A stretch of 64,000 nucleotides of DNA from an archaeon (GCA_018696395.1 JABHQR010000023.1:15180-79179); one strand, 5' to 3'; counted from the first letter of the stretch, positions 118-31,970 are shown. Made by a program: numbers and translations. Notes: a model not told the origin generated them from the letters alone.

Positions 118-1440
118 TTAACCCCTAACTTCCAACTTTTTCCCTCTAACAATAAAATCATACAGATTACTGTTAGTATCCTTGACCATCCCCATTAAAT
201 TCCTAGACCAAATGATTGCACAATCTATTTTTTGTTCAGGCGTATCACCTAAAAATATAGCTTCATTCAAATTATCAAAATAAGTAAACTTAAATTTACG
301 ATAGATTTTATTAAAAGATAAATTAGCCCCAGAAGGAACACTTGACCGAACATATGAATCACACATTTGATAAGCGTCACAGATATTCTTAATATTTGAC
401 ATAGAAAGATTATTTTTAAAATCAGAATCTACTAAATAAGGAGCTATATTCTGTTGATAATAGGTGAAATCATCTAAATCAATGTAATTTAAATTAGGAT
501 TAACCAATATTTTTTGAATTTCAAGTCTAAATTGACCCTCAGTTCTGATTCTATTACCATCAATTTGTCCCATCAAATAAGAGATAGTTTCATCATAAAC
601 CTCTTTATCGAGTAATTTATCTTTATAATTTAACAAATTTTTAACAGCCCATTTCCCTTTATCATTAAGAGCTCCATTAAAATTATTTAATGTTGAAGCA
701 ATAGTAGATCCTTTCTTACATGAACCAAGAATCTCAAAAATATCTTTAATTAATTTATCTTTAAGTTCAATAGGAGTAATGAAAGAAGAACTAATTTCAT
801 TAAAAAAATGATTAAGATTAACTTCAAAAGTCTTTTTGTTAAAATTCTTTCCTTCAAGGTAATCTTGTTTATTGAAAACAAGTTTCATATTATCTTGGGA
901 ATAGAATTCAGATAAGTTATTTAGATAAGCATTTAGAGATTTATTTACTTTAATTTTAAATTCAGGAGTTCCAATTCCAAGACCACAAAATCTTCTGTTA
1001 AATAAAGAATGGACTGAGTCTAAATTAGAATTTAAATTATTACAAAAAACACCTAACAAAGGACTTTCTTTATAATTATTAAATAGATTATTTAAATTTT
1101 GTAATTGAGAGGGATCATATTCTAACTTAGTAAAAATATTTTGAATCAAAACAAAAGTATAATTTGAATCATCAAACTCAGTTTCATTCCAATAATCAAA
1201 AGTTTTTTTCATGACATTATTAAATACAAACAAATCATTTTCATTATTAAAATGTTGATAAGATGAAGTAACCAATGATTCAAATAAATCATCATAAAAA
1301 TAATTTAAATGTTCAGGACATTTAGTTACAATATGTTTTATGAGATCTTTGGATGAATCTAAAAAATCTTCACTAAAGGATTTATCTTTAACTGCAAAAT
1401 CTAAAATCACGTTTACAAGTCCTTCAAGATCCCTTTTCAT
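118..1440 (-). CDS. Array family member (conserved C-terminal signature), 440 aa
   Basis: C-terminus '...LGDTPEQKIDCAIIWSRNLMGMVKD' fits the family signature (G-D-x-x-E-Q-K ... W ... hydrophobic-K). No signal peptide. Tightly packed head-to-tail with its neighbours. Confidence 0.7.
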   Translation of the reverse strand: MKRDLEGLVNVILDFAVKDKSFSEDFLDSSKDLIKHIVTKCPEHLNYFYDDLFESLVTSSYQHFNNENDLFVFNNVMKKTFDYWNETEFDDSNYTFVLIQNIFTKLEYDPSQLQNLNNLFNNYKESPLLGVFCNNLNSNLDSVHSLFNRRFCGLGIGTPEFKIKVNKSLNAYLNNLSEFYSQDNMKLVFNKQDYLEGKNFNKKTFEVNLNHFFNEISSSFITPIELKDKLIKDIFEILGSCKKGSTIASTLNNFNGALNDKGKWAVKNLLNYKDKLLDKEVYDETISYLMGQIDGNRIRTEGQFRLEIQKILVNPNLNYIDLDDFTYYQQNIAPYLVDSDFKNNLSMSNIKNICDAYQMCDSYVRSSVPSGANLSFNKIYRKFKFTYFDNLNEAIFLGDTPEQKIDCAIIWSRNLMGMVKDTNSNLYDFIVRGKKLEVRG

Positions 1441-2634
1441 TTATAACTCGCCCCCTACAGACAACTGAAAGTAACTAAATAACCTATCTGGATTTTTCTT
1501 GATTAAACTATAAGTATTAAGCAAAAATTCAGTCATAAGATTCTTTTTATCTGAAATGTTGTCTGCTTGAGAAGTAGCTTCTTCAATGCCTGAAGCAAAA
1601 CATTTTGCAAATTTATCTTTAAAATCTGATTCTTTAAAACCAACTATAAAATTTCTATTCAACAGATTATAACTTAAATTATAAATATTCATGATTCTAT
1701 TGATATCCTTACAATTCAAACTCCTCGTTAATTCAGTGTCAGAGATATAAACTTGAAAATGACCTAAATATTGTTCAATCACTTTTGGCTTCAACTCAGA
1801 ATAATAAGGATCTTTGTTAACATAATTTAATATTTCAAAATGCCAAGAATTGATTTCATATAAAGACAATGCTTTCTTAAATCTATCCCTAGAAGTTAAA
1901 GTTGTTACAAATTCTTTTAAAAATGAACTGGGTTCTTCATCAAAAAGAGTTATTAATTTATCATGAATTTTTACAAACTGGTTAACTTCAGAGATACTAA
2001 AACAATAATTTAAAATTGTTAATACATTATCCAAATTATTTCTTACTTTATCAAGGTCATGTCTTAAAAAATAAGAGGACATACCTAGATTAGTAATTAA
2101 TTCTTTTCCAGAATCAGGATTTGCTTTATCTAAAATAATTTTTTTAACTTGATCTTCTAAATATATGGAAAAAACATTATGTCCAATTTCTAAACAATTA
2201 ATTCCACCATCAGCCCCTATAAAAATATTTAATTCAATTAATCCTTTAAAGAGATCTTTTTGCATATGATCTTCTAAAAGGGAATAATCTTCCAAGATTT
2301 GACATGCAATTGAACCTAACTTTTGTGATTGATCCCTAAATGAAGATAATAACTCCAAACCAGACCCAAAACGATTTTGCTTTTTTAACAATTCAAGATA
2401 TTTTGGAAGTTCCAATTCAATTTTATTTTCTAGATGATTGGACGAATTTAATTGTAATTTAGTGAGATTATCTGAATTAATTAAATTGTTTAGAAGAGTT
2501 CTTATTTGATAATTTTTATCTAAAAAAGTGTAATGTTTAATAACTTCTGGAACCAAACATACTAAATCATTAAAATTATCTTGATCATTGTAAACTTTAC
2601 GCAAATCTTTCATAATTTTTCTCTGAGAACTCAT
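1441..2634 (-). CDS. Array family member, 397 aa
   Basis: C-terminus 'KKNLMTEFLLNTYSLIKKNPDRLFSYF..VGGEL' belongs to the 'LIKK[ND]P..F' subfamily. ATGA overlap with the upstream gene at 2631-2634. Confidence 0.7.
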   Translation of the reverse strand: MSSQRKIMKDLRKVYNDQDNFNDLVCLVPEVIKHYTFLDKNYQIRTLLNNLINSDNLTKLQLNSSNHLENKIELELPKYLELLKKQNRFGSGLELLSSFRDQSQKLGSIACQILEDYSLLEDHMQKDLFKGLIELNIFIGADGGINCLEIGHNVFSIYLEDQVKKIILDKANPDSGKELITNLGMSSYFLRHDLDKVRNNLDNVLTILNYCFSISEVNQFVKIHDKLITLFDEEPSSFLKEFVTTLTSRDRFKKALSLYEINSWHFEILNYVNKDPYYSELKPKVIEQYLGHFQVYISDTELTRSLNCKDINRIMNIYNLSYNLLNRNFIVGFKESDFKDKFAKCFASGIEEATSQADNISDKKNLMTEFLLNTYSLIKKNPDRLFSYFQLSVGGEL

Positions 2635-3896
2635 TCAACCATCACCTCTTGCAGGAAATATGTTTTGAAAAGTCCAGGATCTTTTTTTACTAAAGAAGAT
2701 GTTTCATTGATCCATTCTAAAAGATAAATCTCTTTCTGATGATTACTTTCTACCAAAGAGATTGTTTCATTTAAATATTTAAAAAAGTAATCATCAAGCT
2801 TATCATTAACAACATTTTTACCTAAAAGATTAGTTATATCATTTTCAAAAAGTTCAGACATATTTGTATTAATAACATTATAAACAAGATCATATAACAC
2901 AATCAATCTATTAATGCAATTATAAGATATTTCGTTCTTAAATTCAGAATCATTAATTTCTTCTCTAAAACATTCTGAATATCTTAAGCAAAGCCCTATA
3001 TCAAACCCATCTTTATCTTTGGACATACTATAATAATCTAAATTATTTTCAGTTTGATTTAGACTAGAAGATTTATTTATAACCTTTAAAGTGTCCTCAT
3101 AATTAATTTTTTCTTGATAAGAGTTGATAGAATCCAATAATTTAATAAAATCTTTTTGATTTTTAATGTTAATATTAGTTTTATAAGTTAAAATTAAATT
3201 TAATAAAACCATTTGATTTTCATTTTTACATGACCTGTATAGATTAGACAATCTTTTAATATTGAGATTTAATTTGTCCCCGTTAGATTTAAATAATTGA
3301 TAACAATTCTCAAAAGAGCTTATCATCCAAATAGAATCAAGATTACTTAATTGTTGATGTTCAAAAAATATTTCTTTAAGTAGATCAGATGTTGTAAAAT
3401 AATTAATTTTGTTTTTTATAGATTCTCTTTTTTTAGGATCATCTTTAAGATATAGTTCCCTAGCATAATTAGAAAGATAGTTTATTAATGATTCAGAGAT
3501 TTGGGTATTAGAAAATGATTTAATGGATGAGATCACATTTGAACATAAATCAAACTTAACTTTTGGATGAAAGTCACTTCTTAAAATATCATTTAAACCC
3601 ACAATGATCCGATTAAACTTGTTATGATTACCATCAGGAAGATTATCTTTTAATACATCTAAAAGAGAGCCCATCTTTGAAAATTTAGGATTAGAGTGAT
3701 CATAATTGATTATCTTTTTGAAGAGATCTACTGATTGTTGTTCACAATTTTGATTTGTGACATAATTAAAAACAGACCTAATATCACTTTCAATTATTTC
3801 AGGAGCCAGTTCTAGATCAATACCCATATCCTGAATCCCAGAATATACTTGGTTGGATATAGACATAATTTGATTAATTTCATGTTCCAATCTCAT
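2631..3896 (-). CDS. Array family member, 421 aa
   Basis: C-terminus 'NHQKEIYLLEWINETSSLVKKDPGLF'. ATGA overlaps at both ends. Confidence 0.7.
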   Translation of the reverse strand: MRLEHEINQIMSISNQVYSGIQDMGIDLELAPEIIESDIRSVFNYVTNQNCEQQSVDLFKKIINYDHSNPKFSKMGSLLDVLKDNLPDGNHNKFNRIIVGLNDILRSDFHPKVKFDLCSNVISSIKSFSNTQISESLINYLSNYARELYLKDDPKKRESIKNKINYFTTSDLLKEIFFEHQQLSNLDSIWMISSFENCYQLFKSNGDKLNLNIKRLSNLYRSCKNENQMVLLNLILTYKTNINIKNQKDFIKLLDSINSYQEKINYEDTLKVINKSSSLNQTENNLDYYSMSKDKDGFDIGLCLRYSECFREEINDSEFKNEISYNCINRLIVLYDLVYNVINTNMSELFENDITNLLGKNVVNDKLDDYFFKYLNETISLVESNHQKEIYLLEWINETSSLVKKDPGLFKTYFLQEVMVE

Positions 3897-5200
3897 CCCA
3901 CCATCACCTCTGGTGTGAATATTTTTAACGCACCAAAATTTTTTTCAAAAATCCAAGATTCACGTTTCATAACCCTAGTAACTTCTTTTGACCAATTAAC
4001 AAGAAGACTCTTCTTTTCACCAAGATTATTGCCAATCCCTATAACTTCATTCATTGCAGATTGATATTCAACTTTTAAGTCATTTAAATCATACAGGTGT
4101 GCCCATCTAGTAGTATTCCAATTAGGATAAGATTCAACAATCCTATAAATTAATTCATATGATTCCATCAAACATTTAATCTCTTTCATAGAAAGATCAT
4201 TTCTTAATTCATGATCTTCAATTTTTGAATGAAGTAAAGATAAATAAGTTGGATAGATATTATTGTCATAATTTGGTTGGTTAGTTTTCTTTAGCTCATT
4301 TATACCATATTTAAATTGATCAATAGATTTCACTTCATTAAACATAATTAATAAAGAATTATAATCCAAACTATCTTTATGTTCAGTTAATATTTGATAA
4401 TAATCAACCATCACACCAATTTTTTGCCCCTTAGTATATTTTTTATCCCATATAGTTTTACTCAATAAATCAATTTGTTCTTTGGTCTCACAACGATTAT
4501 AAAGAACAGCCAACACTTTAAATTGTTCTAATGCATCTTCTTTTCCTAAGCAGTAAGATAATGGATTAAAACTCCTAAATATACTTTGTAGTTGATTCAG
4601 GCTGTAGTCTTTATGTTTCATAAAAAGTTCAGTGCAACAATCTAAAGATAAACCATTTAATAATACCTTAGAATCAAACACTTTATTTCTTCCAGAATGT
4701 GAAACAAAATGTTTTAATGGAGAAACAACATCATAATAAACAAGATCAATTAAATCAGAGGAGACATCAGATTGAGAATAAGGGATTAAGAATTCAGATA
4801 AAGGGATAATTAGATCTAAAACAGTTTCATTAAATAATTTTGACAATTTCAAAAAACTTTTTTCTGAACCCATATAATCTTTAAAAAGATCTAACATAAA
4901 ATCAGTTTTTGTTTCATCATTTTTTTCATCATATAATTTTAGCTTTAAGATAACATTCCTTATTTTAACATGATTATATTTCTTCCTAAAATATTTACCT
5001 AAATCATTTTCATGGTCATAGGTAACAACACCTCTTTCAATACAATCATCACTATGATTAAATATCACACCCATATCTTCAATAATTTCATCTAAATTTC
5101 TTCTAAAAATTTTACTATTATCAATTAGTTCAGAGTAAGATTCCCTTAAAGAGCCTAATGATTCGTTTACATCTATTTCCCAAGGAAACTGTTCACTCAT
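3893..5200 (-). CDS. Array family member, 435 aa
   Basis: C-terminus 'IGNNLGEKKSLLVNWSKEVTRVMKRE' resembles that of 22413..23657. ATGA overlaps. Confidence 0.7.
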   Translation of the reverse strand: MSEQFPWEIDVNESLGSLRESYSELIDNSKIFRRNLDEIIEDMGVIFNHSDDCIERGVVTYDHENDLGKYFRKKYNHVKIRNVILKLKLYDEKNDETKTDFMLDLFKDYMGSEKSFLKLSKLFNETVLDLIIPLSEFLIPYSQSDVSSDLIDLVYYDVVSPLKHFVSHSGRNKVFDSKVLLNGLSLDCCTELFMKHKDYSLNQLQSIFRSFNPLSYCLGKEDALEQFKVLAVLYNRCETKEQIDLLSKTIWDKKYTKGQKIGVMVDYYQILTEHKDSLDYNSLLIMFNEVKSIDQFKYGINELKKTNQPNYDNNIYPTYLSLLHSKIEDHELRNDLSMKEIKCLMESYELIYRIVESYPNWNTTRWAHLYDLNDLKVEYQSAMNEVIGIGNNLGEKKSLLVNWSKEVTRVMKRESWIFEKNFGALKIFTPEVMVG

Positions 5201-6270
5201 GCTACCATCACCTCTTGCATAAGATTACTTCGGAAAAGATCAGGATCTTCTTTGATCAATCTTTTAATATCATAACAAAAAGAAAGCATATTTCTTGTTC
5301 TTTCATTTACAGAATCACCCATTACCATTACATCATTTAAATGTTCAAAGAAATAATTCTTCCCAATTACTGATCCTTTAGTATAATAATCTAATGTTCC
5401 TGAAACAAGGTCATATGTATCTACTAAAACTTTAATTTGACCCATGTTAAGATAATATTTGGTATCAACTTTAAGCCTATTCCTAATATTCAAACAATAA
5501 TCTTGAAAGATAGGTATATCTACTTTCCCAATATTTTCATAATCTCGAACCTCATATATTAAAGCAATTAATTCGTTAAAATCTAAATCTTGACATATAG
5601 CGTCTTGATACATTATGGCTTCTTTTTTATTTTGAGGTTCTAATTCAATATCAAATAATAAAGTTAAATAGTTATAAAGTTCTGGTGTTCTTTCATGTTC
5701 AGAGTTATGTTTATAAAATAGTTTACACGCTCCTGAAAGGACAATATCTTTATAATCAGAACTAGCATAATGATGTAATATATTAGTAGTGATATCAAAT
5801 AGAGTACGTCTTTTGTTAGAATCATATAATTCAAATTTATCATCAATATCCCAAGCAGTAAATGGTAATTCCAAATAATCAAAGTTAAGGTTAGCTTTAT
5901 TTTTTAAAATAAAATTGTTTAACTTCTTTATGGGTACCAATAAGTGTTTATCATACAAAAAATTACGATCATGATTTATTCCAATACACAGATAATGATT
6001 ATTGGATAATATTTTTTTATAAAAATCATGATTTTTGAAAATTTCTATAATTTCAATTACTTGTTCATAATAATCTAATATTTCATGTTTATCCTCTTCA
6101 GAATTAGGAAAAAACCTATGCCAGTCTGATATTTGTTCAAGGTAAAAAGTATTTGAATCATTCTCTGAATAAGAATAAATTTTTCTTCCTAACTGGTCTA
6201 ATATTTTATCAAGATTTTCATCAATCTTATTTTCCAATCCAGAATCTTTTGAAGTGGTCATTTTCTTCAT
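5197..6270 (-). CDS. Array family member, 357 aa, close paralog of 15896..16897
   Basis: C-terminus 'MGDSVNERTRNMLSFCYDIKRLIKEDPDLF'. The internal block 'LIYEVRDYENIGKVDIPIFQDYCLNIRN...YYLNMGQIKVLVDTYDLVSGT' aligns with 'LIYDSRDYENIKIVDICPFMDYCLKIKN...YSLNMKQIKTMMETYDLLEGT' in 15896..16897. Confidence 0.75.
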   Translation of the reverse strand: MKKMTTSKDSGLENKIDENLDKILDQLGRKIYSYSENDSNTFYLEQISDWHRFFPNSEEDKHEILDYYEQVIEIIEIFKNHDFYKKILSNNHYLCIGINHDRNFLYDKHLLVPIKKLNNFILKNKANLNFDYLELPFTAWDIDDKFELYDSNKRRTLFDITTNILHHYASSDYKDIVLSGACKLFYKHNSEHERTPELYNYLTLLFDIELEPQNKKEAIMYQDAICQDLDFNELIALIYEVRDYENIGKVDIPIFQDYCLNIRNRLKVDTKYYLNMGQIKVLVDTYDLVSGTLDYYTKGSVIGKNYFFEHLNDVMVMGDSVNERTRNMLSFCYDIKRLIKEDPDLFRSNLMQEVMVA

Positions 6271-6275
6271 TCACC

Positions 6276-8705
6276 TTACACCAGATACATCTCAACGATA
6301 TCTCTTGCTACGTAAGGTAAAGTTTCTGGCCTTACAACCAATTGAGCATGAGTAGCAAATTCTTTAATTTCGTTATAAGCTTCAATTTCACTGCTATCAA
6401 CCTGATCGCTAGATTTTGTTAAAATGTAAAATACTTTAATATCCTGGTCAGTTGCTTCCTTGATAGCCATCTTAGTATCGTAAACACCTCCCTCATAACT
6501 ATAATCTGCAGGCCTCCCATCAGCAAACAAGAATAAAATCTTATCTTCTGATTTGCCATCTAACAATTTTCTGGTAACTGACCTAATTGCAGCACCGTCC
6601 CGATTTGCATTTCCGGGGTCAATAGTAGTTAATGCATTAATATGGTCAAATTCGTACAGATCTGTATTCCTGTATGATTGGTAAAGAAATTTTCGAATAT
6701 TAAAATCATCGTCCATTTCTAAATCCCTGAATGAAATATCAATAATAGCTGCAGCAATTTTTTCAATATCTAAAATGTTAGTTTTTCTTTTTAGATTAAC
6801 AATTGATTGAGCTCCTGATGCCAACTTTTGACTAGTTGAACCAGACCCATCAAGTAATAAAGCAATATCATAATTTCTTTTATTAATTAAACTAGCATCA
6901 TAAAATCTTTGCTGAGATGCAAAATGTGGATCAATAGAAGCAAACACAACACCAACAGGGTTAAAAGAGTGAGGAGTAGATTGCATTCTTTCTACTTGTA
7001 ATTGATTAAGTTTAAGTTGTTCAAACTGTTCATATACACCAGTGATTACATTTCCATAAAGTGACCTAATTCTTCTTTCAAAATCAGGATCACCACCACT
7101 TAATCGTTTATTAAATATTTCTGAAGGAACTACTTGCTGTTTCTTAGAGTCATATTCATAAAATATTTCTTTAGACACATCATCTTTATCTTCATTATTA
7201 ATTAACCCATCTTTACTTGGCACTGGGTTCTTTTTCTTTTTATAATGTTCAGGACTAATATTCTCAGCAATTTTATCTACCCTACTTTGAATTTCATCTT
7301 TTCTTTCTTTCAATTCATCAACACTTTTAGGTTTAATTGATCCTTGAGTAAAATCATCAGTTTTTCCGAAAGTAGGATTTTGATCATCATTCCAATCTTC
7401 ACTTTTAGAATTGTCTCCTTCACCATTTTGATCAGTTTTACTTTGACCCTGATCACCTTCACCTTTCCCACCACTTCTACCTTCCCCAGTGCCACCACAT
7501 TGATTATTTCTTTGAGAACGATAATTGTTAACTGGTTCAGGAAATTGTAGTTCCAACATCCGATACAATTCAGGTAATAATCCAACCGCTTCACATACAT
7601 TTTTACCACGTAAATCATATACCTTTTCAGCCATATTATTCATTAAATCACGATAATTGTAAATACCCAATTCTTGAAGTTCTGGAACTGTTTCTTTATT
7701 GAAAAATTTAAACTCAAACTCTTTAATTTCATTTATATCATTGTACCTTTCTTGATTAGAAGCCCTGTTCATTTCTAACCTTTTACCACTAAGGTATTCA
7801 TTACCATTAGCACTTAACACTTCAGAAAGAGTACTCCCACAATTTTGACCACATTTAATTTTACGTAACCACGCATTTTTAAAATTTATAAAATCATATA
7901 TTTTGACTTTTTGTTCTAACTGTTCCGCAGATTCTGTTGTTTGTTCTAAAAGTTTAGTTTCATCAGGTTGGTCATTTGAATCATTTTTAGCTTTATATTC
8001 AGGATCTTTATATTCTCCTTGAATTCCAATCAATACTAGGTTAATAAAATCTAAACAAACTTTAAAATCAGATCTTGATTTAATCCTATCACAAAGGTTA
8101 ACTTCAATCCTATAATCTTCAACAATATTAAATAAATCTGCAGCTAATCCAGAATTAGTTCCAGAAGTTTCCACTTCACTCCCAGTTCCTTTTTCCTCTT
8201 TATCTTTCTTGGTATATACTGAAGAATCATTACCAATGATTGAATCAATACTAGAATCACCAATATTAGCCCCATTTGGTCTTACAATTGGAACTTTACC
8301 ACCATACAAATCATTAAAAATATCTTCTAAATTTAATGGTTCAAAACTCCCTTCTAAAATATGTGCTGCTTCATGAATAAGAATACCTTTGTAAAGAGTG
8401 ATATTTCTGTTTCCAGTTAAAACATGTTTATTATCTTTCTTAAAATCATTTATTTTTGCTGCTAATTGGATCTCAAATAAATTATCAGTATATTCAGTAC
8501 TTTTTCTCAAAAGATAAGTTACACCATAACCACTACCTGCTTTAATTGGAACTTTACCCCCTAACAGAGGAATATTGGTAACCAAATAATGTTCACAAAA
8601 AGAAGAATTTTCTTTAAATTCTTCAAGACTTACACCTATTGGCATTGCTGCTTGAAAGATCATTCTAAGACGTCTAAGTCTTCTTTCCATTTCATCGTTT
8701 GACAT
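6276..8705 (-). CDS. vWA-domain protein, 809 aa, with N-terminal HExxH (putative metallopeptidase-like) region and C-terminal vWA/MIDAS; MoxR partner of DUF2201-like architecture
   Basis: 'LLLDGSGSTSQ' is a MIDAS DxSxS motif sitting in a hydrophobic beta-strand context. The N-terminal region carries 'LIHEAAHILEG' (HExxH). A central low-complexity Gly/acidic linker reads 'GGTGEGRSGGKGEGDQGQSKTDQNGEGDNSKSED'. The gene sits immediately downstream of an AAA+ ATPase gene on the same strand. Confidence 0.7.
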   Translation of the reverse strand: MSNDEMERRLRRLRMIFQAAMPIGVSLEEFKENSSFCEHYLVTNIPLLGGKVPIKAGSGYGVTYLLRKSTEYTDNLFEIQLAAKINDFKKDNKHVLTGNRNITLYKGILIHEAAHILEGSFEPLNLEDIFNDLYGGKVPIVRPNGANIGDSSIDSIIGNDSSVYTKKDKEEKGTGSEVETSGTNSGLAADLFNIVEDYRIEVNLCDRIKSRSDFKVCLDFINLVLIGIQGEYKDPEYKAKNDSNDQPDETKLLEQTTESAEQLEQKVKIYDFINFKNAWLRKIKCGQNCGSTLSEVLSANGNEYLSGKRLEMNRASNQERYNDINEIKEFEFKFFNKETVPELQELGIYNYRDLMNNMAEKVYDLRGKNVCEAVGLLPELYRMLELQFPEPVNNYRSQRNNQCGGTGEGRSGGKGEGDQGQSKTDQNGEGDNSKSEDWNDDQNPTFGKTDDFTQGSIKPKSVDELKERKDEIQSRVDKIAENISPEHYKKKKNPVPSKDGLINNEDKDDVSKEIFYEYDSKKQQVVPSEIFNKRLSGGDPDFERRIRSLYGNVITGVYEQFEQLKLNQLQVERMQSTPHSFNPVGVVFASIDPHFASQQRFYDASLINKRNYDIALLLDGSGSTSQKLASGAQSIVNLKRKTNILDIEKIAAAIIDISFRDLEMDDDFNIRKFLYQSYRNTDLYEFDHINALTTIDPGNANRDGAAIRSVTRKLLDGKSEDKILFLFADGRPADYSYEGGVYDTKMAIKEATDQDIKVFYILTKSSDQVDSSEIEAYNEIKEFATHAQLVVRPETLPYVARDIVEMYLV

Positions 8706-8811
8706 TTTTATAGTTTTTTAAATTTAAGTTAGTTAATGATATGATATTCTTAATCATGCATCTGTAATTAAAAAATCACAATTATTTAAATTAAAAAAAA
8801 TAATTTCAGAT

Positions 8812-21466: not shown

Positions 21467-22416
21467 CCACCTCCAACAAGTTCAAAAGAACCAAACATTA
21501 ACCTAAGTTCATCATCATAAGCCCCAGACTTAATCATACGTTGAACTTCTTCACACCAAGAGGTCATACTCTTATGTTTATCTTCTAAAGTTTCTCCACA
21601 CGAGATAGATTCATTAAGGTATTGGAAGAACAACTTCTTTGAAGCGCCAAAACCAATCGGAAAAACAGAATCACCATATTCTTCTAAAACAGTACAATAG
21701 TTAGATACTAATTCTTCAGTTTCTTGTAATAAAAACATTTCATTATAATCAATTTCATACTTTAATTCTTCATCTTTTAACTCACGTAAATAATGATTAT
21801 TAAAATCAGTCAATTTGTTGAATTCATGATGTTCAATGAATCCAATTTCAGAATTAAATTTAGATCTTGGTTGCATGAATCCAGGTAATTTAATCAAATA
21901 ACTTTTAAAAATATCTTCAAATGAACTATTATTTTCTAAAAAAGAACATGACCTATTAAAAAGTGGATGATCTTTAAAATCTCTTAAGTAATCAAAAAGA
22001 TCAAGTAAAATATCACCTCTTTTTTCATTAGCTAAATTTTTAATTGTCCAAAATAAACTTCTATCCATTTCATCATTTTCTAAACACAAATGTGTTTTAG
22101 CATAATCATCAAATATATACATTAAATCATTAGATAAAAAAGAGTTTACCCTTGTAGCACCCATGATAAATTTAATTCCACTTATTTCAACACAAGAAGA
22201 ATAGAAACCACATAATTTCTTTATTTCATCATGATTTTTATTTTTAGTCACAGATTTCCTTAAGCTAAGAAAAATTTCACCAGGGACAACATTTTTTTCA
22301 TTCCTCCTAATATCTTTACATTTGGTAATAAAAGAATGATATGAATCTAACACTGAATTTAAAGTAGAAGTTCCTAACTCTTCGAAAGTTTCAATCATCA
22401 GATTTTCTAAATTCAT
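21457..22416 (-). CDS. Array family member, subfamily A
   Basis: C-terminus 'ISCGETLEDKHKSMTSWCEEVQRMIKSGAYDDELRLMFGSFELVGGGWR'. Also 'KLPGFMQPRSKFN'. Confidence 0.8.
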   Translation of the reverse strand: MNLENLMIETFEELGTSTLNSVLDSYHSFITKCKDIRRNEKNVVPGEIFLSLRKSVTKNKNHDEIKKLCGFYSSCVEISGIKFIMGATRVNSFLSNDLMYIFDDYAKTHLCLENDEMDRSLFWTIKNLANEKRGDILLDLFDYLRDFKDHPLFNRSCSFLENNSSFEDIFKSYLIKLPGFMQPRSKFNSEIGFIEHHEFNKLTDFNNHYLRELKDEELKYEIDYNEMFLLQETEELVSNYCTVLEEYGDSVFPIGFGASKKLFFQYLNESISCGETLEDKHKSMTSWCEEVQRMIKSGAYDDELRLMFGSFELVGGGWR

Positions 22417-25269: not shown

Positions 25270-26588
25270 TAACCCCTCATTATTAATCTAAAGTCATCGT
25301 ACTGACCTTCTTTGATAAGTTTAGAAGCGTTTGAAGCAAATTCTAACAACATTCTTTTCTGAACAGAAACATTTTCAGCATTAGATTTTATTTCATTAAA
25401 TATATTTGAATATAATTCGCCTAAACTCACGTCACCCTTATCTAAAAATGCTTTTTTATTTTCATTAATTGAAATGTAATTCTTACAAAGATCATTAAAA
25501 GTCATTAATTTAAAATATTCATCCACAGAAAGAGATTGAAATATGTCAATATCTTTAAACAAACTACAAGTCATATAATTAAAAGATTTTACTCTATCCC
25601 GTCTTATTAAACAGGTACAATTTATGGCTTTCCCCAACCATTCATTTAATTTAACCTTATTTTCTTGTAAAGAATTATCTTCACTGATTACTTTATTCAA
25701 TGAACTAGACAAATTTTTCCTAAATAAACCTTTATATTCAAAGGGCATATTCTTATAATAATCCAAAAAAAAGTTCAAATTGTTCATCTCTTCCAAGTTT
25801 AGATTTAATCTAAATTTCTTGTTTTCGATTAAATTATAGTTTTTAAAATAAGAGGTAATAGTCTCTAAATCAAAATATTCATCAAAGTACTTTTTATCAT
25901 TATTTTCTACATAATCTATGACATCGCTAAAGGTAGTAGGATTTACATCTACAGCATTAAGTATATCAAAAGTAAAATAGAATTTATCTTGTTTAGTTTG
26001 ATCTGAAAAGTAATCCAAAACTTTCTTAACAGCTTTTTCTTCATTAAAACTATCAAAAGACTTTGGAGAAATAAATTTTTGTGATTTAACAACTGCGTTT
26101 AATAAATCCTTATCATAATGACCTTTTGGATCATTAAATTCATTAATTATAGCTAATCCTCTATCCAAGTAAGATAAAGAATCGTCACAATCCATTGAAG
26201 TTAATAATATTCTGATAGCAGTATCAATATTATTATTTAAATAAACTGAACTAGCTTTGACCCCATATTTGTAAATAAAAGTATCAATTATTTTCACCAT
26301 ATAATCAGATTTAGAATCATTATCATCATGAACCAATTTCCATAAAGTGAAATTAGTTCTCCTTTTTGCAACATACATTAAATTCACATGATCATTGGAT
26401 TCTATATGTCTCATTAAATTATGATAACGAGTATTATACTCACAATCAAAACCACTCATAACCTTGTCGTGGCCATTTAAGATAATTTCTAAGTTGGAAT
26501 CACCTTCCAGTAATTCTGCAATTTTATCTCTTCTCTGTTTGATTAAAGAATCTAATTCTCGAATATCCATGACTTTATCATTTCCCAT
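25263..26588 (-). CDS. Array family member, 441 aa, subfamily C
   Basis: C-terminus 'NVSVQKRMLLEFASNASKLIKEGQYDDFRLIMRGYC'. Confidence 0.7.
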   Translation of the reverse strand: MGNDKVMDIRELDSLIKQRRDKIAELLEGDSNLEIILNGHDKVMSGFDCEYNTRYHNLMRHIESNDHVNLMYVAKRRTNFTLWKLVHDDNDSKSDYMVKIIDTFIYKYGVKASSVYLNNNIDTAIRILLTSMDCDDSLSYLDRGLAIINEFNDPKGHYDKDLLNAVVKSQKFISPKSFDSFNEEKAVKKVLDYFSDQTKQDKFYFTFDILNAVDVNPTTFSDVIDYVENNDKKYFDEYFDLETITSYFKNYNLIENKKFRLNLNLEEMNNLNFFLDYYKNMPFEYKGLFRKNLSSSLNKVISEDNSLQENKVKLNEWLGKAINCTCLIRRDRVKSFNYMTCSLFKDIDIFQSLSVDEYFKLMTFNDLCKNYISINENKKAFLDKGDVSLGELYSNIFNEIKSNAENVSVQKRMLLEFASNASKLIKEGQYDDFRLIMRGYC

Positions 26589-26589
26589 C

Positions 26590-27228
26590 TTAACAATAAC
26601 CCCCTATTGCTAATCGGAAATCATCATACTTACCTTCTTTAAACAATCTAGTTGCGTCAGAAGTGAACCCTAATAATATTCTTTTTTGGATAGAAACATC
26701 TTCAGATAATGATTTAACCTCTTTGAGAATACCACAACACAACTCTTTCAAACCATCATAATGTTTAATATCATAACAAGAGGAATAAAAAGAATTAGAA
26801 TCATTATTTCCAGAAAGATAAATATTACAAAGTCTTTCAAATTTAATTAAGTTTAAATAATCATTTTTACTTAATAAATTAAAAAGGTCTATTTCTTTAA
26901 TTAATTCACAAGCCATAATATGCAGATTATCGTCATCATCATAATCAACAAAATTTAAACAGTATTTTGTTTTACCAATCCAATCAATTAATTTATTTTT
27001 ATCTTTAATCAAATCTTCATCATCATCAAAACAATCATCTAACACCCGTTTAAATGAATATATTAAAGAATCTTCAATATTCCATTTTGTTAATTTTGAA
27101 AAATTGTTATTAAAATTAAAGATATAATTTAAATCGTTTACTTTTTCTTCTAAATTATAATCTTCTTTAAGTAAATACTCAACAGACCTTCTTTTTCTCA
27201 AGAAATTTCTACTCATCTTACTGTACAC
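26590..27228 (-). CDS. Array family member, short (212 aa) paralog corresponding to the C-terminal half of 25263..26588
   Basis: C-terminus 'DVSIQKRILLGFTSDATRLFKEGKYDDFRLAIGGYC' aligns with the neighbour. The preceding 'ELIKEIDLFNLLSKNDYLNLIKFERLCNIY' aligns with 'LFKDIDIFQSLSVDEYFKLMTFNDLCKNY'. Confidence 0.65.
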   Translation of the reverse strand: MYSKMSRNFLRKRRSVEYLLKEDYNLEEKVNDLNYIFNFNNNFSKLTKWNIEDSLIYSFKRVLDDCFDDDEDLIKDKNKLIDWIGKTKYCLNFVDYDDDDNLHIMACELIKEIDLFNLLSKNDYLNLIKFERLCNIYLSGNNDSNSFYSSCYDIKHYDGLKELCCGILKEVKSLSEDVSIQKRILLGFTSDATRLFKEGKYDDFRLAIGGYC

Positions 27229-29839
27229 CCCTCAATTCACTGATAAAAGAATGAATATCAAAGTGATCTTCACGTACTAATTGGGAGATTCTTTTACAAT
27301 AATTAATCACACTATGTTTCTGAACTTCAATAGATTCATCTTTGTAATAATCTACAACTTCGTCCAGAGAAGAAATGAAAGATTGTTTAAGTTCTTTATT
27401 TAAGAATTCTCTTGTTTTAACAGAATTATGGCTTGGATTTGACTCTGGTTTTTGTAATAAAGTATTTTTTAAAAGATTATAAGTTCCAGTCAAAAGTTCA
27501 ATTTGAGAGATTTTAAGTGTTGGTTTAATCACATTGGACCAATCTTCAAAAGAGAAAATATATTCATTTACTAAACCAAAGTTTTCTTCACTTAATGAAA
27601 AATTGTTTTCAAATACATTAAAAAAGTCATCCAAACTCTTACCAATTCCTTTATCAAATCCAAGAACATAATTATTAACCTTAGGTAAGATATTATTATT
27701 GAAATCTTCTCGTGAAGCTAATTTTCTTAACCTATTTTCTAATACTGCAAACGAACTTAAATCACCAGTTCTAGTAAAATAACCAACTGTATGTTTAAAA
27801 GTTTTAATTAAATCACCATTATTGTCCGTCAAATCAAGAAGATCACAAATATTTGTGATAAGATATTCCTTATCATTAACAACTCTTCTTTCATCATAAA
27901 CAAATTCAGGGAGAAGTCTTCTATCTCCGACAACTTGAAAGAAAATTTTTCTAAAAGTATTCATTAAATGATAAAGCTTACTTTTATCTTTATCTCTATT
28001 ACTAACCTGATTAACTTGATTTAATTCTATATCTTCATCAGTTTCAATATTATTTAACTTTTCAATGACTCTTGGCATGGACAAATATTCTTCTAAAAAA
28101 GCAGGGATATTTTTATTGTATTTATGAGTAAAAAAATGGATTGCATTATTAACATATTTTAAATCTAATTCATTATTGTTATGTTTTTTATCAAGATAGG
28201 TTAATAGGTAATTTAAATTCAGACTATTTTCCTTAAATCCAGGTATAAAATAATTTACTTTCTCTAAAACATCATTAAAATCAGATCTTTCAGATAATTT
28301 TTCTAACAATTCTTTTAAAGATACAAATTTATGAAAATCCATTTCAAAACCACTATAATTCTGCAAATTCCAACCATCAAAAACATGTCTGAAAGTTGTA
28401 ACTAAACCAACATGATTATCAGTTAGATCAAAAAGATTACAAACACTACCTATTAAATATTCTTTACAATTAACTTTTTCACCATGTTCAGAATCTCTAT
28501 TTGAAACTAAAAGTTCTCTGTTTGGCATTGATAAAATATTACCAAAACAATTTATTAAATAAAATAAATTAGTTTTTATAGGATCATTTCTAATTACATG
28601 ATATCTCCCATTTTCACCCCTATCTTTATCTGCTTCAAAATGATTTAATTTATCAATAATTTCAGGGTTTGAGAAAAACAAATTTAAATCACAATCTTTT
28701 CCTTCAAGGTAACTATGGCGTTGGAACCTAACCATGTCATTAACATAATTTACATCTAAATTATTTATCCTATTGCTTTCATAAATAATAGACAAAAGTT
28801 TATTAAAATTGGATGTACCAAAAGAAGACACATTATAATTAATTCTTAAATTTTTAATAATTACATCAAAATCAGACATATCAAAATTATCCCCATCAAC
28901 ATAATCTCCGATAACCTCATTGAAGAAATCAAGTTTTTGAAGATGTTTTTCAATACCTTCTTCTGATGTTTCTACTCGAAAAGAGATTGAACTATTATAA
29001 AGCAAATCAGACAGATTTGTAGGGTTAGAAGTTAAAGGAATAAAGTTCAAAAAACCATGAGTTAACATACCTTTTATTTGAGTTTTCTTTTCATCAGAAA
29101 CATTTTCAAGTTCAAGATTAGAGATTAAGACGTATTGATTTAACATTTGTCCTAAGCTAACACTCAAATTGTCTTCCAAAGTAGAATTATCAATTAATTT
29201 ACATACATATTTTTCTAAAGTAATTCTTGGTTTTAAACCATAGCAATTAAGGGGTAATTTTCTAATTTTATTGAAAGTATGAAATAACCTTTCAAAAGAA
29301 ACATGATAATCAGAGATATTTTTAAAATAATTTACTACAAAATCTTGAGAAAAATAGTTAGTTAATCCGGTTGGTAAAGTTTCACCAGGTTCACTAACAG
29401 TACAATTTACAAAAGAGTTTTCTACCCCCTCTATAAATTTATAAAATAAATCATTTTCATTTTCACTATAATTGAAATAATGCTTAATCAATTCATTTCC
29501 TAAAACACAAGCTTGAAAATCGCCATATTCTTCAGAAAATAATCTTATGTATTTCTTATAATAATTTAATTTTGTTGTTGACCTACTTCCAACTGAATCT
29601 AAAATATCCAAAGTACTCTGCACACATTCATCAATAGCAACACCATAATTTCTTGGAAGATCCTCGGTTAGAATTTCACTTACAATCTTAAACTCGTCTT
29701 CAGTATAACCTTCAAAGATCCTACCAAAATTAGATTTAACATACTCTTGATACTCCCCTCTAACTTCTCCTTCTGAAGTACTTATGAGCAAGTACTGTTC
29801 TAAATTAGATTTAGCTCTAATTAGTTCATTATCAACCAT
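27218..29839 (-). CDS. Array family member, giant (873 aa), subfamily D, with an internal ~130-aa tandem module duplication
   Basis: Shares N-terminus 'NELIRAKSNLEQYLLISTSEGEVRGEYQEYV' and C-terminus 'KHSVINYCKRISQLVREDHFDIHSFISELRGVQ' with 29841..31943. The internal repeat is '...KEYLIGSVCNLFDLTDNHVGLVTTFRHV...' versus '...KEYLITNICDLLDLTDNNGDLIKTFKHT...'. Confidence 0.75.
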   Translation of the reverse strand: MVDNELIRAKSNLEQYLLISTSEGEVRGEYQEYVKSNFGRIFEGYTEDEFKIVSEILTEDLPRNYGVAIDECVQSTLDILDSVGSRSTTKLNYYKKYIRLFSEEYGDFQACVLGNELIKHYFNYSENENDLFYKFIEGVENSFVNCTVSEPGETLPTGLTNYFSQDFVVNYFKNISDYHVSFERLFHTFNKIRKLPLNCYGLKPRITLEKYVCKLIDNSTLEDNLSVSLGQMLNQYVLISNLELENVSDEKKTQIKGMLTHGFLNFIPLTSNPTNLSDLLYNSSISFRVETSEEGIEKHLQKLDFFNEVIGDYVDGDNFDMSDFDVIIKNLRINYNVSSFGTSNFNKLLSIIYESNRINNLDVNYVNDMVRFQRHSYLEGKDCDLNLFFSNPEIIDKLNHFEADKDRGENGRYHVIRNDPIKTNLFYLINCFGNILSMPNRELLVSNRDSEHGEKVNCKEYLIGSVCNLFDLTDNHVGLVTTFRHVFDGWNLQNYSGFEMDFHKFVSLKELLEKLSERSDFNDVLEKVNYFIPGFKENSLNLNYLLTYLDKKHNNNELDLKYVNNAIHFFTHKYNKNIPAFLEEYLSMPRVIEKLNNIETDEDIELNQVNQVSNRDKDKSKLYHLMNTFRKIFFQVVGDRRLLPEFVYDERRVVNDKEYLITNICDLLDLTDNNGDLIKTFKHTVGYFTRTGDLSSFAVLENRLRKLASREDFNNNILPKVNNYVLGFDKGIGKSLDDFFNVFENNFSLSEENFGLVNEYIFSFEDWSNVIKPTLKISQIELLTGTYNLLKNTLLQKPESNPSHNSVKTREFLNKELKQSFISSLDEVVDYYKDESIEVQKHSVINYCKRISQLVREDHFDIHSFISELRGVQ

Positions 29840-29840
29840 C

Positions 29841-31925
29841 TTACTGCACCCCCTCTTGACTTACAAAAGATAGAACGTCAAACTTATTTTCTTTTACTAA
29901 CCTAGAGATTTCATTACAATAATTAATTACTTCATGTTTTTTCACATTGATAGATTGATCACCACACAATGCGATAACTTCATCCAAAGATTTTTGAAAA
30001 GATCCTTTTAATTTACCTTTAAGAATCTCTCTTTTTCTTTTTACTTGATTAGCATGAGATATAGTTCTTGTAGGTTCTTCTTCTTGCAACATAGAATTTT
30101 CTAAAAGGCTATATGTTTCAACCATAACTCTTCTTTGATTTAAATTGAAATCATATATTAGGTCCGAATTCCAACCCAGATAAATCCCCATAAAATCAAA
30201 AAATTCGTCTAAGTTAAAATCATTTACAGATTTTGATCTTTTTAATATTTCAAAGAAAGATTTAATATTAAAACGATTATCTTTATTATTATTAATAATA
30301 AATTCATTTGTTTTAGGTAAAATCTCTGAATGATAATTACTTCTCTTAGATAAACTTAACAACTGATCTTTTAGAACTTGAAATTCACTTAAATGAAAAA
30401 GATTTCCATCTTGATTATAATCATAAATTATTTTATTAAAATTCTTAATCATTCTAAAAGAAGAATTGCTAAATAGATCAAATGTTTCTACCAAATCACA
30501 AACACAACTAACAAAATATTCTTTTATATCAAGTTCACCATTAGTAGAATCACTAATTAAAGAATTACGTTCTGGAATAGAAAATATACTCTCAAATGTT
30601 CTCAACAGATGGAATAAATGAGTGTATTTTTGATCAATCACTTCTGATTTTGAAGAGTTATCAAGTTCATACAATTTTAAAACTTTAATTACATTAGGCC
30701 TAGAAAGATAATTTTCTAACTTATTATCCCTTACCTTACTATCAAAAAAACCATGATATTTATGATAATTAAAATTAATTGAATCTTCTAAATAATTAAT
30801 GTTGATAGACCCATTAACGATTCCTTCATCAATAAAATTTAATGCTGCCCTAAAATTACCAAAATCATGAGTAGAACCATATGAAAAACACCTACCCAGA
30901 TTCCAAGTAAAGTTATTATAATCTAAATCTTTTGGCAAATTTTCAATAACATTATCAAATAAATTAACTGTGTATAAGAGATTTTTAGTTTTATTTTCAT
31001 CCTCGTTTAATTTTTTTAAGGAAAAATAAAATTTATTAAAGATAGAATTTAAATGATGGGGTGATTTATTCTTTGAAAGAGCTTTCAATAAACTTTTAGT
31101 TAAAAGTGATCTTAAATTAACAGATACAGGGGCCCCATCTAATTCATTTGAGGGCAATGAAAAATTCTCAGGTAAAGAAGCTGCCTGTTTATATTGTATC
31201 AATAACCCTTTAATTGACCTATATAATTGCCCATTTGACATCAATGAACCACTTTCTTTAATGAATTCACAAACATAATCTCCCATCACTTCCTTAGAGT
31301 TCACTCCATAGAAATCTTCTGGTATATTCATGAGATTAGAAAAGATAAGAAAAGAATCTATAAAACTTAAACGATATTTCCCACAATCAACTAAATATTT
31401 TCTTACATCTTTTTGAGAAAAATAATGTGTAGCCCCTAAAAGAAGATCCATTTTACTTAAGGGAGAATTTATTATCCTATCATTTTGAATATATTTAAAT
31501 TCATCTACAAATTCAGGAAAAATATCAGTATTAATGTAATGCTTAATCAATTCATTTCCTTGAATTAAAATATCATGACTTAAATTATCTTCAGTAAATA
31601 TTTTTGTATAAGTTTTTAATTTTTCTAGCTGATGGACATTAGGAATTCCTTTAATCAAATCAATGACTTCAAAAGTTGAAATCACACATTCATCAATAGC
31701 CGCAATACCATTAAGTTTAGGAAAATTTTCTGTAAAAAGATTTCCAACCACATTTAATTGTTCAATAGAATATCCTTCAAAGATCCTATTAAAGTTACTT
31801 CCAACATACTCTTGATACTTATCTCTAACCTCTCCCTCTGAAGTACAGATAAGCAAGTACTGTTCTAAATTAGATTTAGCTCTGATTAGTTCATTATTAA
31901 CTTTAGATAATTCTCTGCCAGGCAT
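29841..31925 (-). CDS. Array family member (about 694 aa from ATG 31925; track lists a GTG start at 31943), subfamily D, first gene of the array
   Basis: C-terminus 'KHEVINYCNEISRLVKENKFDVLSFVSQEGVQ'. One copy of the 'KEYFVSCVCDLVETFD' module. An ATG at 31925 is preceded by SD GGGAG and an upstream TATA-like box. Confidence 0.75.
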   Translation of the reverse strand: MPGRELSKVNNELIRAKSNLEQYLLICTSEGEVRDKYQEYVGSNFNRIFEGYSIEQLNVVGNLFTENFPKLNGIAAIDECVISTFEVIDLIKGIPNVHQLEKLKTYTKIFTEDNLSHDILIQGNELIKHYINTDIFPEFVDEFKYIQNDRIINSPLSKMDLLLGATHYFSQKDVRKYLVDCGKYRLSFIDSFLIFSNLMNIPEDFYGVNSKEVMGDYVCEFIKESGSLMSNGQLYRSIKGLLIQYKQAASLPENFSLPSNELDGAPVSVNLRSLLTKSLLKALSKNKSPHHLNSIFNKFYFSLKKLNEDENKTKNLLYTVNLFDNVIENLPKDLDYNNFTWNLGRCFSYGSTHDFGNFRAALNFIDEGIVNGSININYLEDSINFNYHKYHGFFDSKVRDNKLENYLSRPNVIKVLKLYELDNSSKSEVIDQKYTHLFHLLRTFESIFSIPERNSLISDSTNGELDIKEYFVSCVCDLVETFDLFSNSSFRMIKNFNKIIYDYNQDGNLFHLSEFQVLKDQLLSLSKRSNYHSEILPKTNEFIINNNKDNRFNIKSFFEILKRSKSVNDFNLDEFFDFMGIYLGWNSDLIYDFNLNQRRVMVETYSLLENSMLQEEEPTRTISHANQVKRKREILKGKLKGSFQKSLDEVIALCGDQSINVKKHEVINYCNEISRLVKENKFDVLSFVSQEGVQ

Positions 31926-31970
31926 ATAATATCTCCCTAGCACCCCTATTTACCACTAATAAGGTGTGTT

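Follow-up and report, generated by a model that had tools for sequence, protein, structure and literature searches.

The subject here is a tandem gene array in a 64,000-nucleotide stretch of archaeal DNA (GCA_018696395.1, JABHQR010000023.1:15180-79179), that whole stretch being called here the window. Between the window's left edge and ileS (32044-35271; TIGR00392, E 1e-216), which forms the array's right border, lie 24 closely spaced open reading frames (ORFs), all on the minus strand. Twenty-two of these, within 118-31943, are paralogs of one another, 212 to 873 amino acids (aa) long and all intact, which bears out the ~32-kb array of at least 22 paralogs that had been claimed from an earlier reading of the sequence (the original prediction). 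The other two encode an AAA+ ATPase and a protein with a vWA domain, here termed the adaptor. These had been described as lying off the minus strand, which is wrong, as 8812-10059 and 6276-8705 are both minus-strand genes. Together the genes appear to constitute a three-component system, with the paralogs its third component, amplified in tandem, and the array in the window the extreme case.

The array extends past the window. As had been supposed from a partial gene at 1-113, it continues leftward, that fragment being the start of a 464-aa member, followed by members of 454, 329 and 438 aa, i.e., four members beyond the edge, and then by a Peptidase_M3 gene and mutL. This extension was read from the 105-kb JGI contig Ga0209042_1000106, which contains the window. 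The array as a whole consists of 26 paralogs, together with the genes for AAA+ and vWA, over ~36.9 kb and at ~26% GC throughout, with the AAA+/vWA pair sitting inside it such that 17 members are found upstream and nine downstream.

Most intergenic distances fall between -4 and +5 nt; overlaps reach 17 nt in places, according to which start codon is chosen. The spacing of 0-4 nt or ATGA overlaps described originally thus holds for most junctions, but not for those longer overlaps nor for the only true gaps, of 106 nt and 198 nt, one on each side of the AAA+ gene. The 198-nt spacer (10060-10257) is the longest non-coding stretch of the array. Within it are a TATA-like box and, towards the middle, sequence that is less AT-rich; an Rfam scan finds no match there, nor do tRNA and Rfam scans of the whole window. 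A TTTATAAA-type box is present in this gap and also in the 100 nt that separate ileS from the array and, because of that likeness, the array probably is made up of at least two transcription units. Judged from its sequence, the 198-nt region is the probable internal promoter of a sub-operon of the AAA+ gene, the vWA gene and the downstream members.

The proteins of the family are hydrophilic. Kyte-Doolittle hydropathy reveals neither a transmembrane segment nor a signal-like N-terminus (19-residue maximum <=1.46), in keeping with the lack of signal peptides already suggested. As to gene starts, those used here (GTG or TTG) lie 2-6 codons away from those of public gene calls in five members, the public lengths being 694 aa for 29841-31943, 423 aa for 17906-19195, 442 aa for 19179-20516, 318 aa for 20504-21466 and 532 aa for 23659-25269. 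The true starts of these five probably are internal ATGs, e.g., that of MPGRELSK near 31925.

All-against-all BLASTP of the 22 members gives E-values of 1e-3 to 1e-76, with nearly all members joined at 1e-3 to 1e-12. Within the family, closer subfamilies can be recognized, designated by first coordinate as A (13946, 14917, 20504, 21457), B (5197, 15896), C (25263, 26590) and D (27218, 29841). With a profile made from the tails in the window itself, each of the 22 members has a domain E of 2e-26 to 3e-40, a test which is circular, the profile having been built from the very sequences that it scores. A second profile, built from 85 members found in other genomes (here ‘foreign-only’), recovers 20 of the 22 at E 1.3e-7 to 5.8e-23, finds no further ORF in the 64 kb, and has no match in 20x shuffled ORFs. 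That is, the profile check proposed with the original prediction comes out as significant. The two members missed by the foreign-only profile, 26590-27228 and 27218-29839, are linked to the others through close paralogs by BLASTP. An AT-rich compositional artefact can be set aside, both given those shuffles without matches and given clear members in bacterial loci of 50-54% GC.

What the members share is a C-terminal module. The signature first described was one of 35-40 residues; that it is common to all 22 members and significant in an independent profile stands, but alignment of the last 120-150 residues shows the conserved unit to be instead ~105-120 aa. Its first part is a helix, ‘Y.......I.D.EL...L....IN.L...Y.L’, followed by a variable linker. 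Its second part reads ‘FF..LN..I..G....EK..[IL][LIV]..[WYF][CS].[NED]V..[RK].I’ and leads into a last helix and short tail. The best-conserved positions over 111 members from all sources, in the numbering of 22413-23657, are an aromatic residue at 386 in 100%, K379 in 88%, F362 in 85%, N367 in 81%, G373 in 75%, Y327 in 74% and D308 in 73%. The module as modeled by AlphaFold2 from a 76-sequence alignment consists of six helices and no strands (predicted local distance difference test, pLDDT, 91.9; predicted template modeling score, pTM, 0.84). For full-length 22413-23657 the prediction is likewise all-alpha (pLDDT 75), well defined for an N-terminal part and the module and poor in the middle, its helices being short (10-27 residues) and packed rather than forming long coiled coils.

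The module is at the very C-terminus in every protein matched by an exhaustive HMMER search, described below. Additional, degenerate internal copies are seen in 25263-26588, in 11441-12823 and in a homologue, P0002 (L003 1212-3437, sample DRR337555). The latter is a 741-aa protein with five tandem modules, declining from 50 down to 10 bits, which hints that the variable bodies upstream of the module may be built from degenerate module repeats. Beyond the module, the last 4-8 residues are alike within a genome and unlike between genomes, e.g., ..VMV[EGA] and ..RGY[NCV] in the window, ..TYVVAK in GCA_050187915, and ..SGVSVE, ..EVNVA and ..MRDAA in the assembly ERZ27250158 (ERZ, below). Such genome-specific tails are as would be expected of a peptide co-evolving with a resident partner.

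The family matches no named one, in agreement with what was originally stated. Pfam yields no significant match among the 22 members (best single-member E 0.004, below cutoff), NCBIfam and PHROGs no meaningful match, and PADLOC two isolated matches only, at E ~0.007; the AAA+ and vWA proteins and the bacterial version of the triad have no PADLOC match at all. No toxin or enzymatic domain is detected in any body by Pfam, PADLOC or PHROGs, and no description of the family or triad was found in the literature searched. A provirus or defence island was rejected, with no PHROGs or PADLOC matches and with synteny to ileS retained in three genomes. So too was a polymorphic toxin/immunity cassette: the polarity is reversed (a variable N-terminus and conserved C-terminus), and there are no interleaved small genes, toxin/defence profile matches or signal peptide.

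The ATPase may be classified as a diverged member of the MoxR class. It exceeds the cutoff of the AAA_5 profile (Table 1), on which its orthologs score 25-32 bits, and there is a weak PDB sequence match to NorQ (E 0.005). The Walker A motif is GEPGNGKS, with GxPGxGKS invariant among seven aligned orthologs. The Walker B motif is an atypical hhhNEE in all seven, that is, with Asn where Asp is expected. In these proteins of ~400 aa the C-terminal half, an extension of ~200 aa, is conserved without having a family assignment. No CbbQ_C domain is found in 8812-10059, Pfam reporting AAA_5 only, nor does the seven-ortholog alignment display WxhapG or PsWRxa motifs, most of these ATPases having fewer than ~45 residues before Walker A. 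A second MoxR ATPase is encoded at 61075-61989 on the plus strand and is of canonical CbbQ/NorQ type (AAA_5 82.5 bits, CbbQ_C 59.8 bits); the genome therefore has two different MoxR systems. That gene is followed by a plus-strand ORF, 62066-64000, which starts MEENQEQQPEEEKK..., exceeds 640 aa and leaves the right edge, and which presumably is the vWA/CbbO-NorD-like partner of the second ATPase.

In the adaptor, vWA is the last domain. Its metal ion-dependent adhesion site (MIDAS) motif, DGSGST, is invariant in eight homologues, a conserved downstream FADG is present as well, and a PDB profile match to NorD (E 4e-6) covers the vWA part only. Ahead of it is an N-terminal domain of ~230 aa with an HExxH motif, LIHEAAHILEGSFEP, followed by EDYRIE. 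Across the eight homologues HE[AI]AH is invariant and is followed by a conserved ED[YF]R[IV]E, within a region for which ‘NRN[IV]T[LI]YK..L[IT]HE.AHILEGSF.P’ also is invariant. This domain looks zincin-like in its motif. No Pfam family is found at E up to 10 for the adaptor's N-terminal 188 aa, however, and no peptidase chain in a PDB profile search of the HExxH domain at E up to 10. At aa 270-295 the adaptor has a conserved segment, ..F.N..LRKIKCG...L.E, resembling the family motif FF..LN..I..G....E; homology of this segment with the module was rejected (hhalign probability 1%, E 0.057), the resemblance probably being chance.

Table 1. Features of the array in window coordinates. Module E is the domain E-value with the window-inclusive profile; foreign-only is the E-value with the profile made from other genomes' members.
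Feature	Coordinates	Strand	Evidence
N-terminus of next member (464 aa)	1..113	-	translation MSHKMNLKRTLEQEIKDLRDYF... = start of L015 11328-12722, which has the module at E 4.6e-25
Member, 440 aa; module aa 321-439	118..1440	-	module E 3.1e-33; foreign-only 2.4e-19
Member, 397 aa; module aa 281-394	1441..2634	-	module E 8.9e-34; foreign-only 3.8e-19
Member, 421 aa; module aa 299-421	2631..3896	-	module E 2.2e-34; foreign-only 8.4e-19; ortholog P0063, 27% over ~427 aa
Member, 435 aa; module aa 314-435	3893..5200	-	module E 3.7e-33; foreign-only 2.3e-18
Member, 357 aa (subfamily B); module aa 250-356	5197..6270	-	module E 6.6e-33; foreign-only 7.5e-15; paralog of 15896-16897 at 1e-42
vWA adaptor, 809 aa; N-terminal HExxH domain, C-terminal vWA/MIDAS	6276..8705	-	Pfam VWA 34.6 bits (cutoff 23.8)
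AT-rich 106-nt spacer, AAA+ to vWA	8706..8811	-	
MoxR-class AAA+ ATPase, 415 aa	8812..10059	-	Pfam AAA_5 33.6 bits (cutoff 22)
198-nt intergenic region upstream of AAA+ gene, with TTTATAAATA box	10060..10257	-	sequence reading
Member, 397 aa; module aa 286-395	10258..11451	-	module E 8.1e-27; foreign-only 2.2e-13
Member, 460 aa; module aa 345-458 and degenerate internal copy ~aa 239-339	11441..12823	-	module E 1.8e-29; internal copy, independent E (i-E) 1.9e-4; foreign-only 1e-16
Member, 379 aa; module aa 271-377	12810..13949	-	module E 3.9e-28; foreign-only 1.4e-11; ortholog P0037, 28% over 360 aa, E 8e-42
Member, 324 aa (subfamily A); module aa 207-320	13946..14920	-	module E 2.8e-40; foreign-only 4.7e-20
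Member, 325 aa (subfamily A); module aa 207-319	14917..15894	-	module E 8.5e-35; foreign-only 5.5e-19
Member, 333 aa (subfamily B); module aa 225-331	15896..16897	-	module E 2.3e-32; foreign-only 6.4e-18
Member, 326 aa; module aa 210-322	16897..17877	-	module E 5.8e-34; foreign-only 7.8e-13; full-length ortholog P0029
Member, 429 aa (JGI: 423 aa); module aa 324-426	17906..19195	-	module E 2.5e-29; foreign-only 1e-16
Member, 445 aa; module aa 319-428	19179..20516	-	module E 8.8e-31; foreign-only 2.5e-16
Member, 320 aa (subfamily A); module aa 209-310	20504..21466	-	module E 1.9e-35; foreign-only 8.7e-20
Member, 319 aa (subfamily A); module aa 197-309	21457..22416	-	module E 1.4e-36; foreign-only 2.8e-22
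Member, 414 aa; module aa 292-407; used for structure prediction	22413..23657	-	module E 3.5e-34; foreign-only 5.8e-23; ortholog P0023, 53%
Member, 536 aa; module aa 424-532	23659..25269	-	module E 1.4e-32; foreign-only 2.2e-19
Member, 441 aa (subfamily C); module aa 329-437 and internal copy aa 240-318	25263..26588	-	module E 2.3e-27; internal copy, i-E 2.4e-8; foreign-only 1.2e-11
Member, 212 aa (subfamily C, shortest); module aa 94-209	26590..27228	-	module E 2.2e-26; missed by foreign-only; paralog of 25263-26588, ~1e-27 to 1e-30
Member, 873 aa (subfamily D, giant); module aa 753-867	27218..29839	-	module E 6.5e-26; missed by foreign-only; paralog of 29841-31943, 1e-59
Member, 700 aa (subfamily D); module aa 576-696; first gene after ileS	29841..31943	-	module E 1.5e-27; foreign-only 1.3e-7; likely start ATG near 31925
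100-nt spacer upstream of 29841-31943	between ileS and array		TTTATAAAA box

It is comparison across genomes that ties the family to the AAA+/vWA pair. Searched exhaustively with HMMER, 1.84e9 representatives yield 98 proteins that match the module profile, ~22 of these being this genome's own, while a word-indexed protein search with the same profile returns no match. The HExxH-vWA protein has eight full-length homologues among 5.8e9 protein clusters, and searches with the vWA alignment locate five true loci in 185,579 GTDB species and six in 241 million metagenome records. The module family and the HExxH-vWA protein thereby appear equally rare and co-distributed. Furthermore, at each of the other loci for which there is sequence past the vWA gene (10/10, with ERZ27250158 and Ga0233437 taken as two assemblies), the order is AAA_5, then HExxH-vWA, then one or more family members. 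As this order is the same in every informative locus, the three genes constitute a unit that is conserved across two domains of life, which lends strong comparative support to the early suggestion that the family is a client or partner family of the AAA+/vWA machine. A Desulfotruncus arcticus locus (L014) was set aside, having a distant AAA+/vWA pair only and no family member, and L023 was left out since its contig stops just after ileS.

Copy number differs by type of host, being one in Desulfatiglandales-type bacteria and at least two, six, at least nine, 18 and 26 in Woesearchaeota-type archaea. On the archaeal side, 18 consecutive members are found in ENA ERZ27250158 k141_640217 (= Ga0233437_1000122), with ileS and small genes upstream and Peptidase_U32 downstream; six follow vWA in GCA_050187915.1 (Ca. 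Woesearchaeota); at least two precede a contig end both in JALWQS010000046 (Ca. Woesearchaeota) and in SRR24302413 (an archaeon, with DUF7343 and ileS upstream); and an 88.8-kb archaeal contig, JGI 3300072015, has at least nine co-directional ORFs, four of which match family representatives by length. On the bacterial side there is exactly one member in OY762721, the 4.16-Mb, ~50% GC chromosome of a Desulfatiglandales bacterium (223 aa, module E 3e-24), whose triad measures 398, 660 and 223 aa, and exactly one in JAWOBE010000004, from a Desulfatiglandaceae bacterium of 51% GC (228 aa, E 4e-9), along with one in each of two contigs of bacterial type, OMKS01007213 (54% GC, at a contig end) and Ga0272442 (50% GC). 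The AAA+/vWA pair heads the array in archaeal loci elsewhere, whereas in the window it is embedded. AAA+/vWA proteins of the Desulfobacterota bacteria (L008/L010, L013, L019, L020) share 43-49% identity with the archaeal ones, as compared with 40-51% among archaeal lineages themselves, which points to horizontal transfer of the triad between domains. The array's position beside ileS is stable in three genomes. In sister genomes (L007 2731-4768, L016 6215-8379) three to four small genes without Pfam match, among them one for a conserved 199-aa protein at 80% identity, are found between ileS and AAA+; the window lacks them, its array following directly upon ileS.

The host is assigned to the DPANN archaea, in the Woesearchaeota/Nanoarchaeota group. 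The named relatives of its ileS product are from Candidatus Woesearchaeota, Nanoarchaeota and Nanoarchaeia metagenome-assembled genomes, at 52-63% identity, with three closer genomes at 69-71%; an archaeal DUF7343 helix-turn-helix protein adjoins ileS, and more than 20 assemblies carry these same sequences. This agrees with the small archaeal genome first envisaged. Should that genome be near 1 Mb, like Woesearchaeota contigs of 1.0-1.3 Mb, then the locus would be roughly 3-4% of it. Elsewhere in the window, 52286-53872 (minus strand; 528 aa) has two stretches matching ThyX (Thy1, E 1e-53) and about twice the usual length, and may be a tandem-duplicated or fused ThyX. The product of 54295-55311 (plus strand) consists of an N-terminal P-loop kinase-like domain (AAA_18/AAA_17) fused to a C-terminal dCMP/cytidine deaminase.

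Module and body differ in constraint. The ratio of nonsynonymous to synonymous divergence (dN/dS) is 0.24-0.49 for the C-terminal domain versus 0.67-0.96 for the bodies of subfamilies A, B and D, while subfamily C is without such a difference (0.35 vs 0.38). Over the final 50 aa in subfamily A, dN is 0.08-0.18 and dS is at or beyond 1.45, i.e., saturated; low dN alongside such dS implies purifying selection, and these same values rule out gene conversion as the source of the conserved tail. The module thus is under strong purifying selection. The ‘strong diversifying pressure’ that had been proposed is, by contrast, not shown, as dS between paralogs is saturated (~0.8-1.8), making dN/dS uninformative with regard to positive selection. 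Between the sister genomes ERZ and SRR24302413 a neighbouring gene is 80% identical, AAA+ 75% and vWA 73.5%, as against 43-58% for family orthologs. Between the window and those same two genomes ileS is 71% identical and AAA+/vWA ~50%, with only the module alignable among family members. The family therefore evolves faster than AAA+, vWA and the neighbouring gene. Full-length orthologs do exist elsewhere, for 22413 (P0023, 53%), 12810 (P0037, E 8e-42), 2631 (P0063) and 16897 (P0029), and many of the duplications thus are old. Subfamilies A-D, and pairs of up to 65% identity in other genomes, are signs of continuing duplication.

From this linkage, co-distribution and selective constraint we infer a new three-component MoxR-vWA system, with its docking, specificity and catalysis envisaged as follows, and give this reading a probability of about 0.55. 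The components would be a diverged MoxR AAA+ ATPase, an HExxH-vWA/MIDAS adaptor, and a soluble, all-alpha protein consisting of a variable N-terminal body of ~100-760 aa and the six-helix module of ~110 aa. That C-terminal module may serve as a docking element or handle by which each paralog is held on the vWA adaptor and ATPase ring, a proposal modelled on vWA partners of the NorD, CbbO and ViaA type, which link MoxR hexamers to their targets. Different binding specificities would come from the variable helical bodies, so that a single machine could draw on as many as 26 interchangeable subunits, whether receptors or clients. The machine would carry out ATP-driven remodelling and, given an active HExxH domain, might also cleave the paralogs or what they bind.

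Various points weigh against this reading. The coupling of family to machine is read solely from gene neighbourhood, and in the window 17 of the 26 paralogs are upstream of the AAA+ gene, with the 198-nt gap between, these 17 probably being a separate transcription unit. All orthologs have NEE where DE would be expected, which leaves the hydrolytic competence of the ATPase uncertain. Protease activity is a guess, as searches of Pfam and PDB give no peptidase family for the HExxH domain. Nor does the module have a strictly conserved acidic residue as candidate for MIDAS binding, with D308 at 73% and the acidic position at +2 at 82%. Lastly, the bacterial single-copy proteins stop right after helix 5, without a terminal tail, and therefore the tail is not a universal recognition element.

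The arena in which a MoxR-vWA system with interchangeable subunits operates could be either virus/host conflict or assembly work within the cell. The paralogs may act in conflict or in host interaction. The most explicit form of such a role, in which each of up to 26 receptors docks by its module and recognizes a different viral or host protein, with ATP-dependent, target-specific remodelling or proteolysis as the consequence, is put forward tentatively, as a speculation that we would sooner doubt than defend.

Unlikely, but with several facts in its favour, is that the paralogs instead build a heteromeric, alpha-helical structure of large size, be it a scaffold, an element resembling a cytoskeleton or a means of attaching cells to one another, with the module oligomerizing and MoxR-vWA acting as assembly chaperone. 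Acidianus two-tailed virus (ATV) supplies a precedent, its MoxR p618 and vWA p892 acting together with helical, filament-forming virion proteins such as p800 as the tail develops (PMC4124505). The stable position next to ileS in three genomes, together with old orthologs, fits a housekeeping role better than it does a mobile defence island, and tandem module copies in some members also would suit a structural protein. A copy number that ranges from 1 to 26 and bodies that range from ~100 to ~930 aa would be unusual for a stoichiometric structure, however, and bodies diverge about twice as fast as the machine. In addition, the short, packed helices that are predicted are not long coiled coils, and the HExxH domain would be without an obvious role.

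More improbable is that the paralogs are effectors delivered to a host cell, module and tail forming a bipartite export signal and the AAA+ protein being an unfoldase or coupling ATPase. Effectors of the Bartonella type IV secretion system carry a C-terminal BID domain plus a charged tail, to which the module plus tail can be likened, i.e., a variable N-terminal body, a conserved C-terminal helical domain of ~110 aa and a genome-specific end. Large expansions are found only in Woesearchaeota-type archaea, which are thought to be host-dependent, and lack of classical signal peptides is typical of substrates of dedicated export. Yet none of the loci contains a gene for a membrane, pore or secretion component, no enzymatic or toxin domain was detected in any body, and the same triad occurs, with a single, tail-less copy, in Desulfatiglandales bacteria (in one case on a 4.16-Mb chromosome). 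MoxR ATPases, moreover, are not known to serve as secretion motors.

Very improbable indeed is that these are unrelated neighbours, or else a neutral amplification or decaying duplicates of a minor gene, for although bodies of subfamilies A, B and D have a near-neutral dN/dS (from saturated dS) and no function is assignable, the three-gene order is kept at 10/10 loci in archaea and bacteria, the 22 ORFs in the window all are intact and translationally coupled, the module is under strong purifying selection, and ~37 kb of junk would be implausible in a reduced genome, one likely of ~1 Mb as estimated from Woesearchaeota contigs.

How then does the proposed MoxR-vWA system compare with those already described? 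As with NorQ/NorD, CbbQ/CbbO and RavA/ViaA, an AAA_5 ATPase is paired with the gene for a vWA/MIDAS partner. In NorQ/NorD the vWA domain inserts a finger into the pore of the hexameric MoxR ring; the vWA partner also touches that ring with its C-terminus and forms a bridge to carboxylates on the target's surface (PMC9976466, PMC13036017). The array's ATPase differs in its ~400-aa length, novel C-terminal half, NEE Walker B and absence of CbbQ_C; the adaptor has an HExxH N-terminal domain which is not seen in NorD; and the clients would be an amplified, non-enzymatic family with no neighbouring metalloenzyme. A metalloenzyme maturation pair of NorQD/CbbQO type accordingly was rejected, there being no CbbQ_C, no client enzyme and a different N-terminal domain in the adaptor. 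ATV p618/p892 also present an archaeal-context MoxR plus vWA, acting on alpha-helical structural proteins (PMC4124505). That system is viral, however, shows no detected sequence relationship or PHROGs match to the one here, and has neither a tandem array nor a shared C-terminal module.

The nearest concept is that of the MoxR-vWA ternary conflict systems of Kaur, Burroughs, Iyer and Aravind (2020), of VMAP, iSTAND, FtsH and beta-propeller types (PMC7159879). In those systems, as here, MoxR and vWA are strictly linked to a fast-evolving third component which has a conserved C-terminal domain and a variable, mostly alpha-helical upstream part; vWA and third component outpace housekeeping genes; and peptidase domains often are carried, with which the HExxH motif may be compared. 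Differences are that here the vWA domain is C-terminal, behind HExxH, with no chain of effector domains after it; that the ATPase is without N-terminal WxhapG/PsWRxa motifs; that the third component is tandemly amplified to 26-fold; and that the hosts are DPANN archaea and Desulfatiglandales rather than multicellular bacteria. Membership in the VMAP type was considered and rejected, with the ATPase motifs and vWA architecture just given counting against it as well. Gene order is MoxR, vWA, third component rather than VMAP, MoxR, vWA; VMAP-C is alpha+beta (seven strands, six to seven helices) as opposed to the predicted all-alpha, six-helix module; and VMAP-type Pfam models have no match in the 22 members. 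The elements that seem new are the third component itself, the HExxH-vWA adaptor, and a tandem expansion without precedent, in a DPANN archaeon. The theme of MoxR-vWA ternary systems would by this be extended into archaea.

Comparison turns what had been an orphan array into a defined and testable three-gene system, the minimal, single-copy version of which, in bacteria of ~50% GC, lends itself to expression and direct study. The genomes of DPANN archaea are very small, and for most of the genes specific to their lineages there is no explanation. That ~3-4% of a genome of likely ~1 Mb is given to one unnamed family indicates that this family matters for the lifestyle of its host.

There is, finally, a likeness to the receptors of cullin E3 ligases. 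F-box and SOCS-box proteins are variable, target-binding paralogs which share one helical docking box and often are tandemly amplified. This is analogy and not homology, the machine here being AAA+/vWA rather than cullin-RING and docking by the module being our proposal. Should the reading of the paralogs as a repertoire of receptors be true, the array would represent a new innate-immunity or host-manipulation system in genome-reduced archaea and a new principle of target diversification in prokaryotic AAA+ machines, that is, the counterpart of the F-box/SOCS-box receptor families on an unrelated machine.

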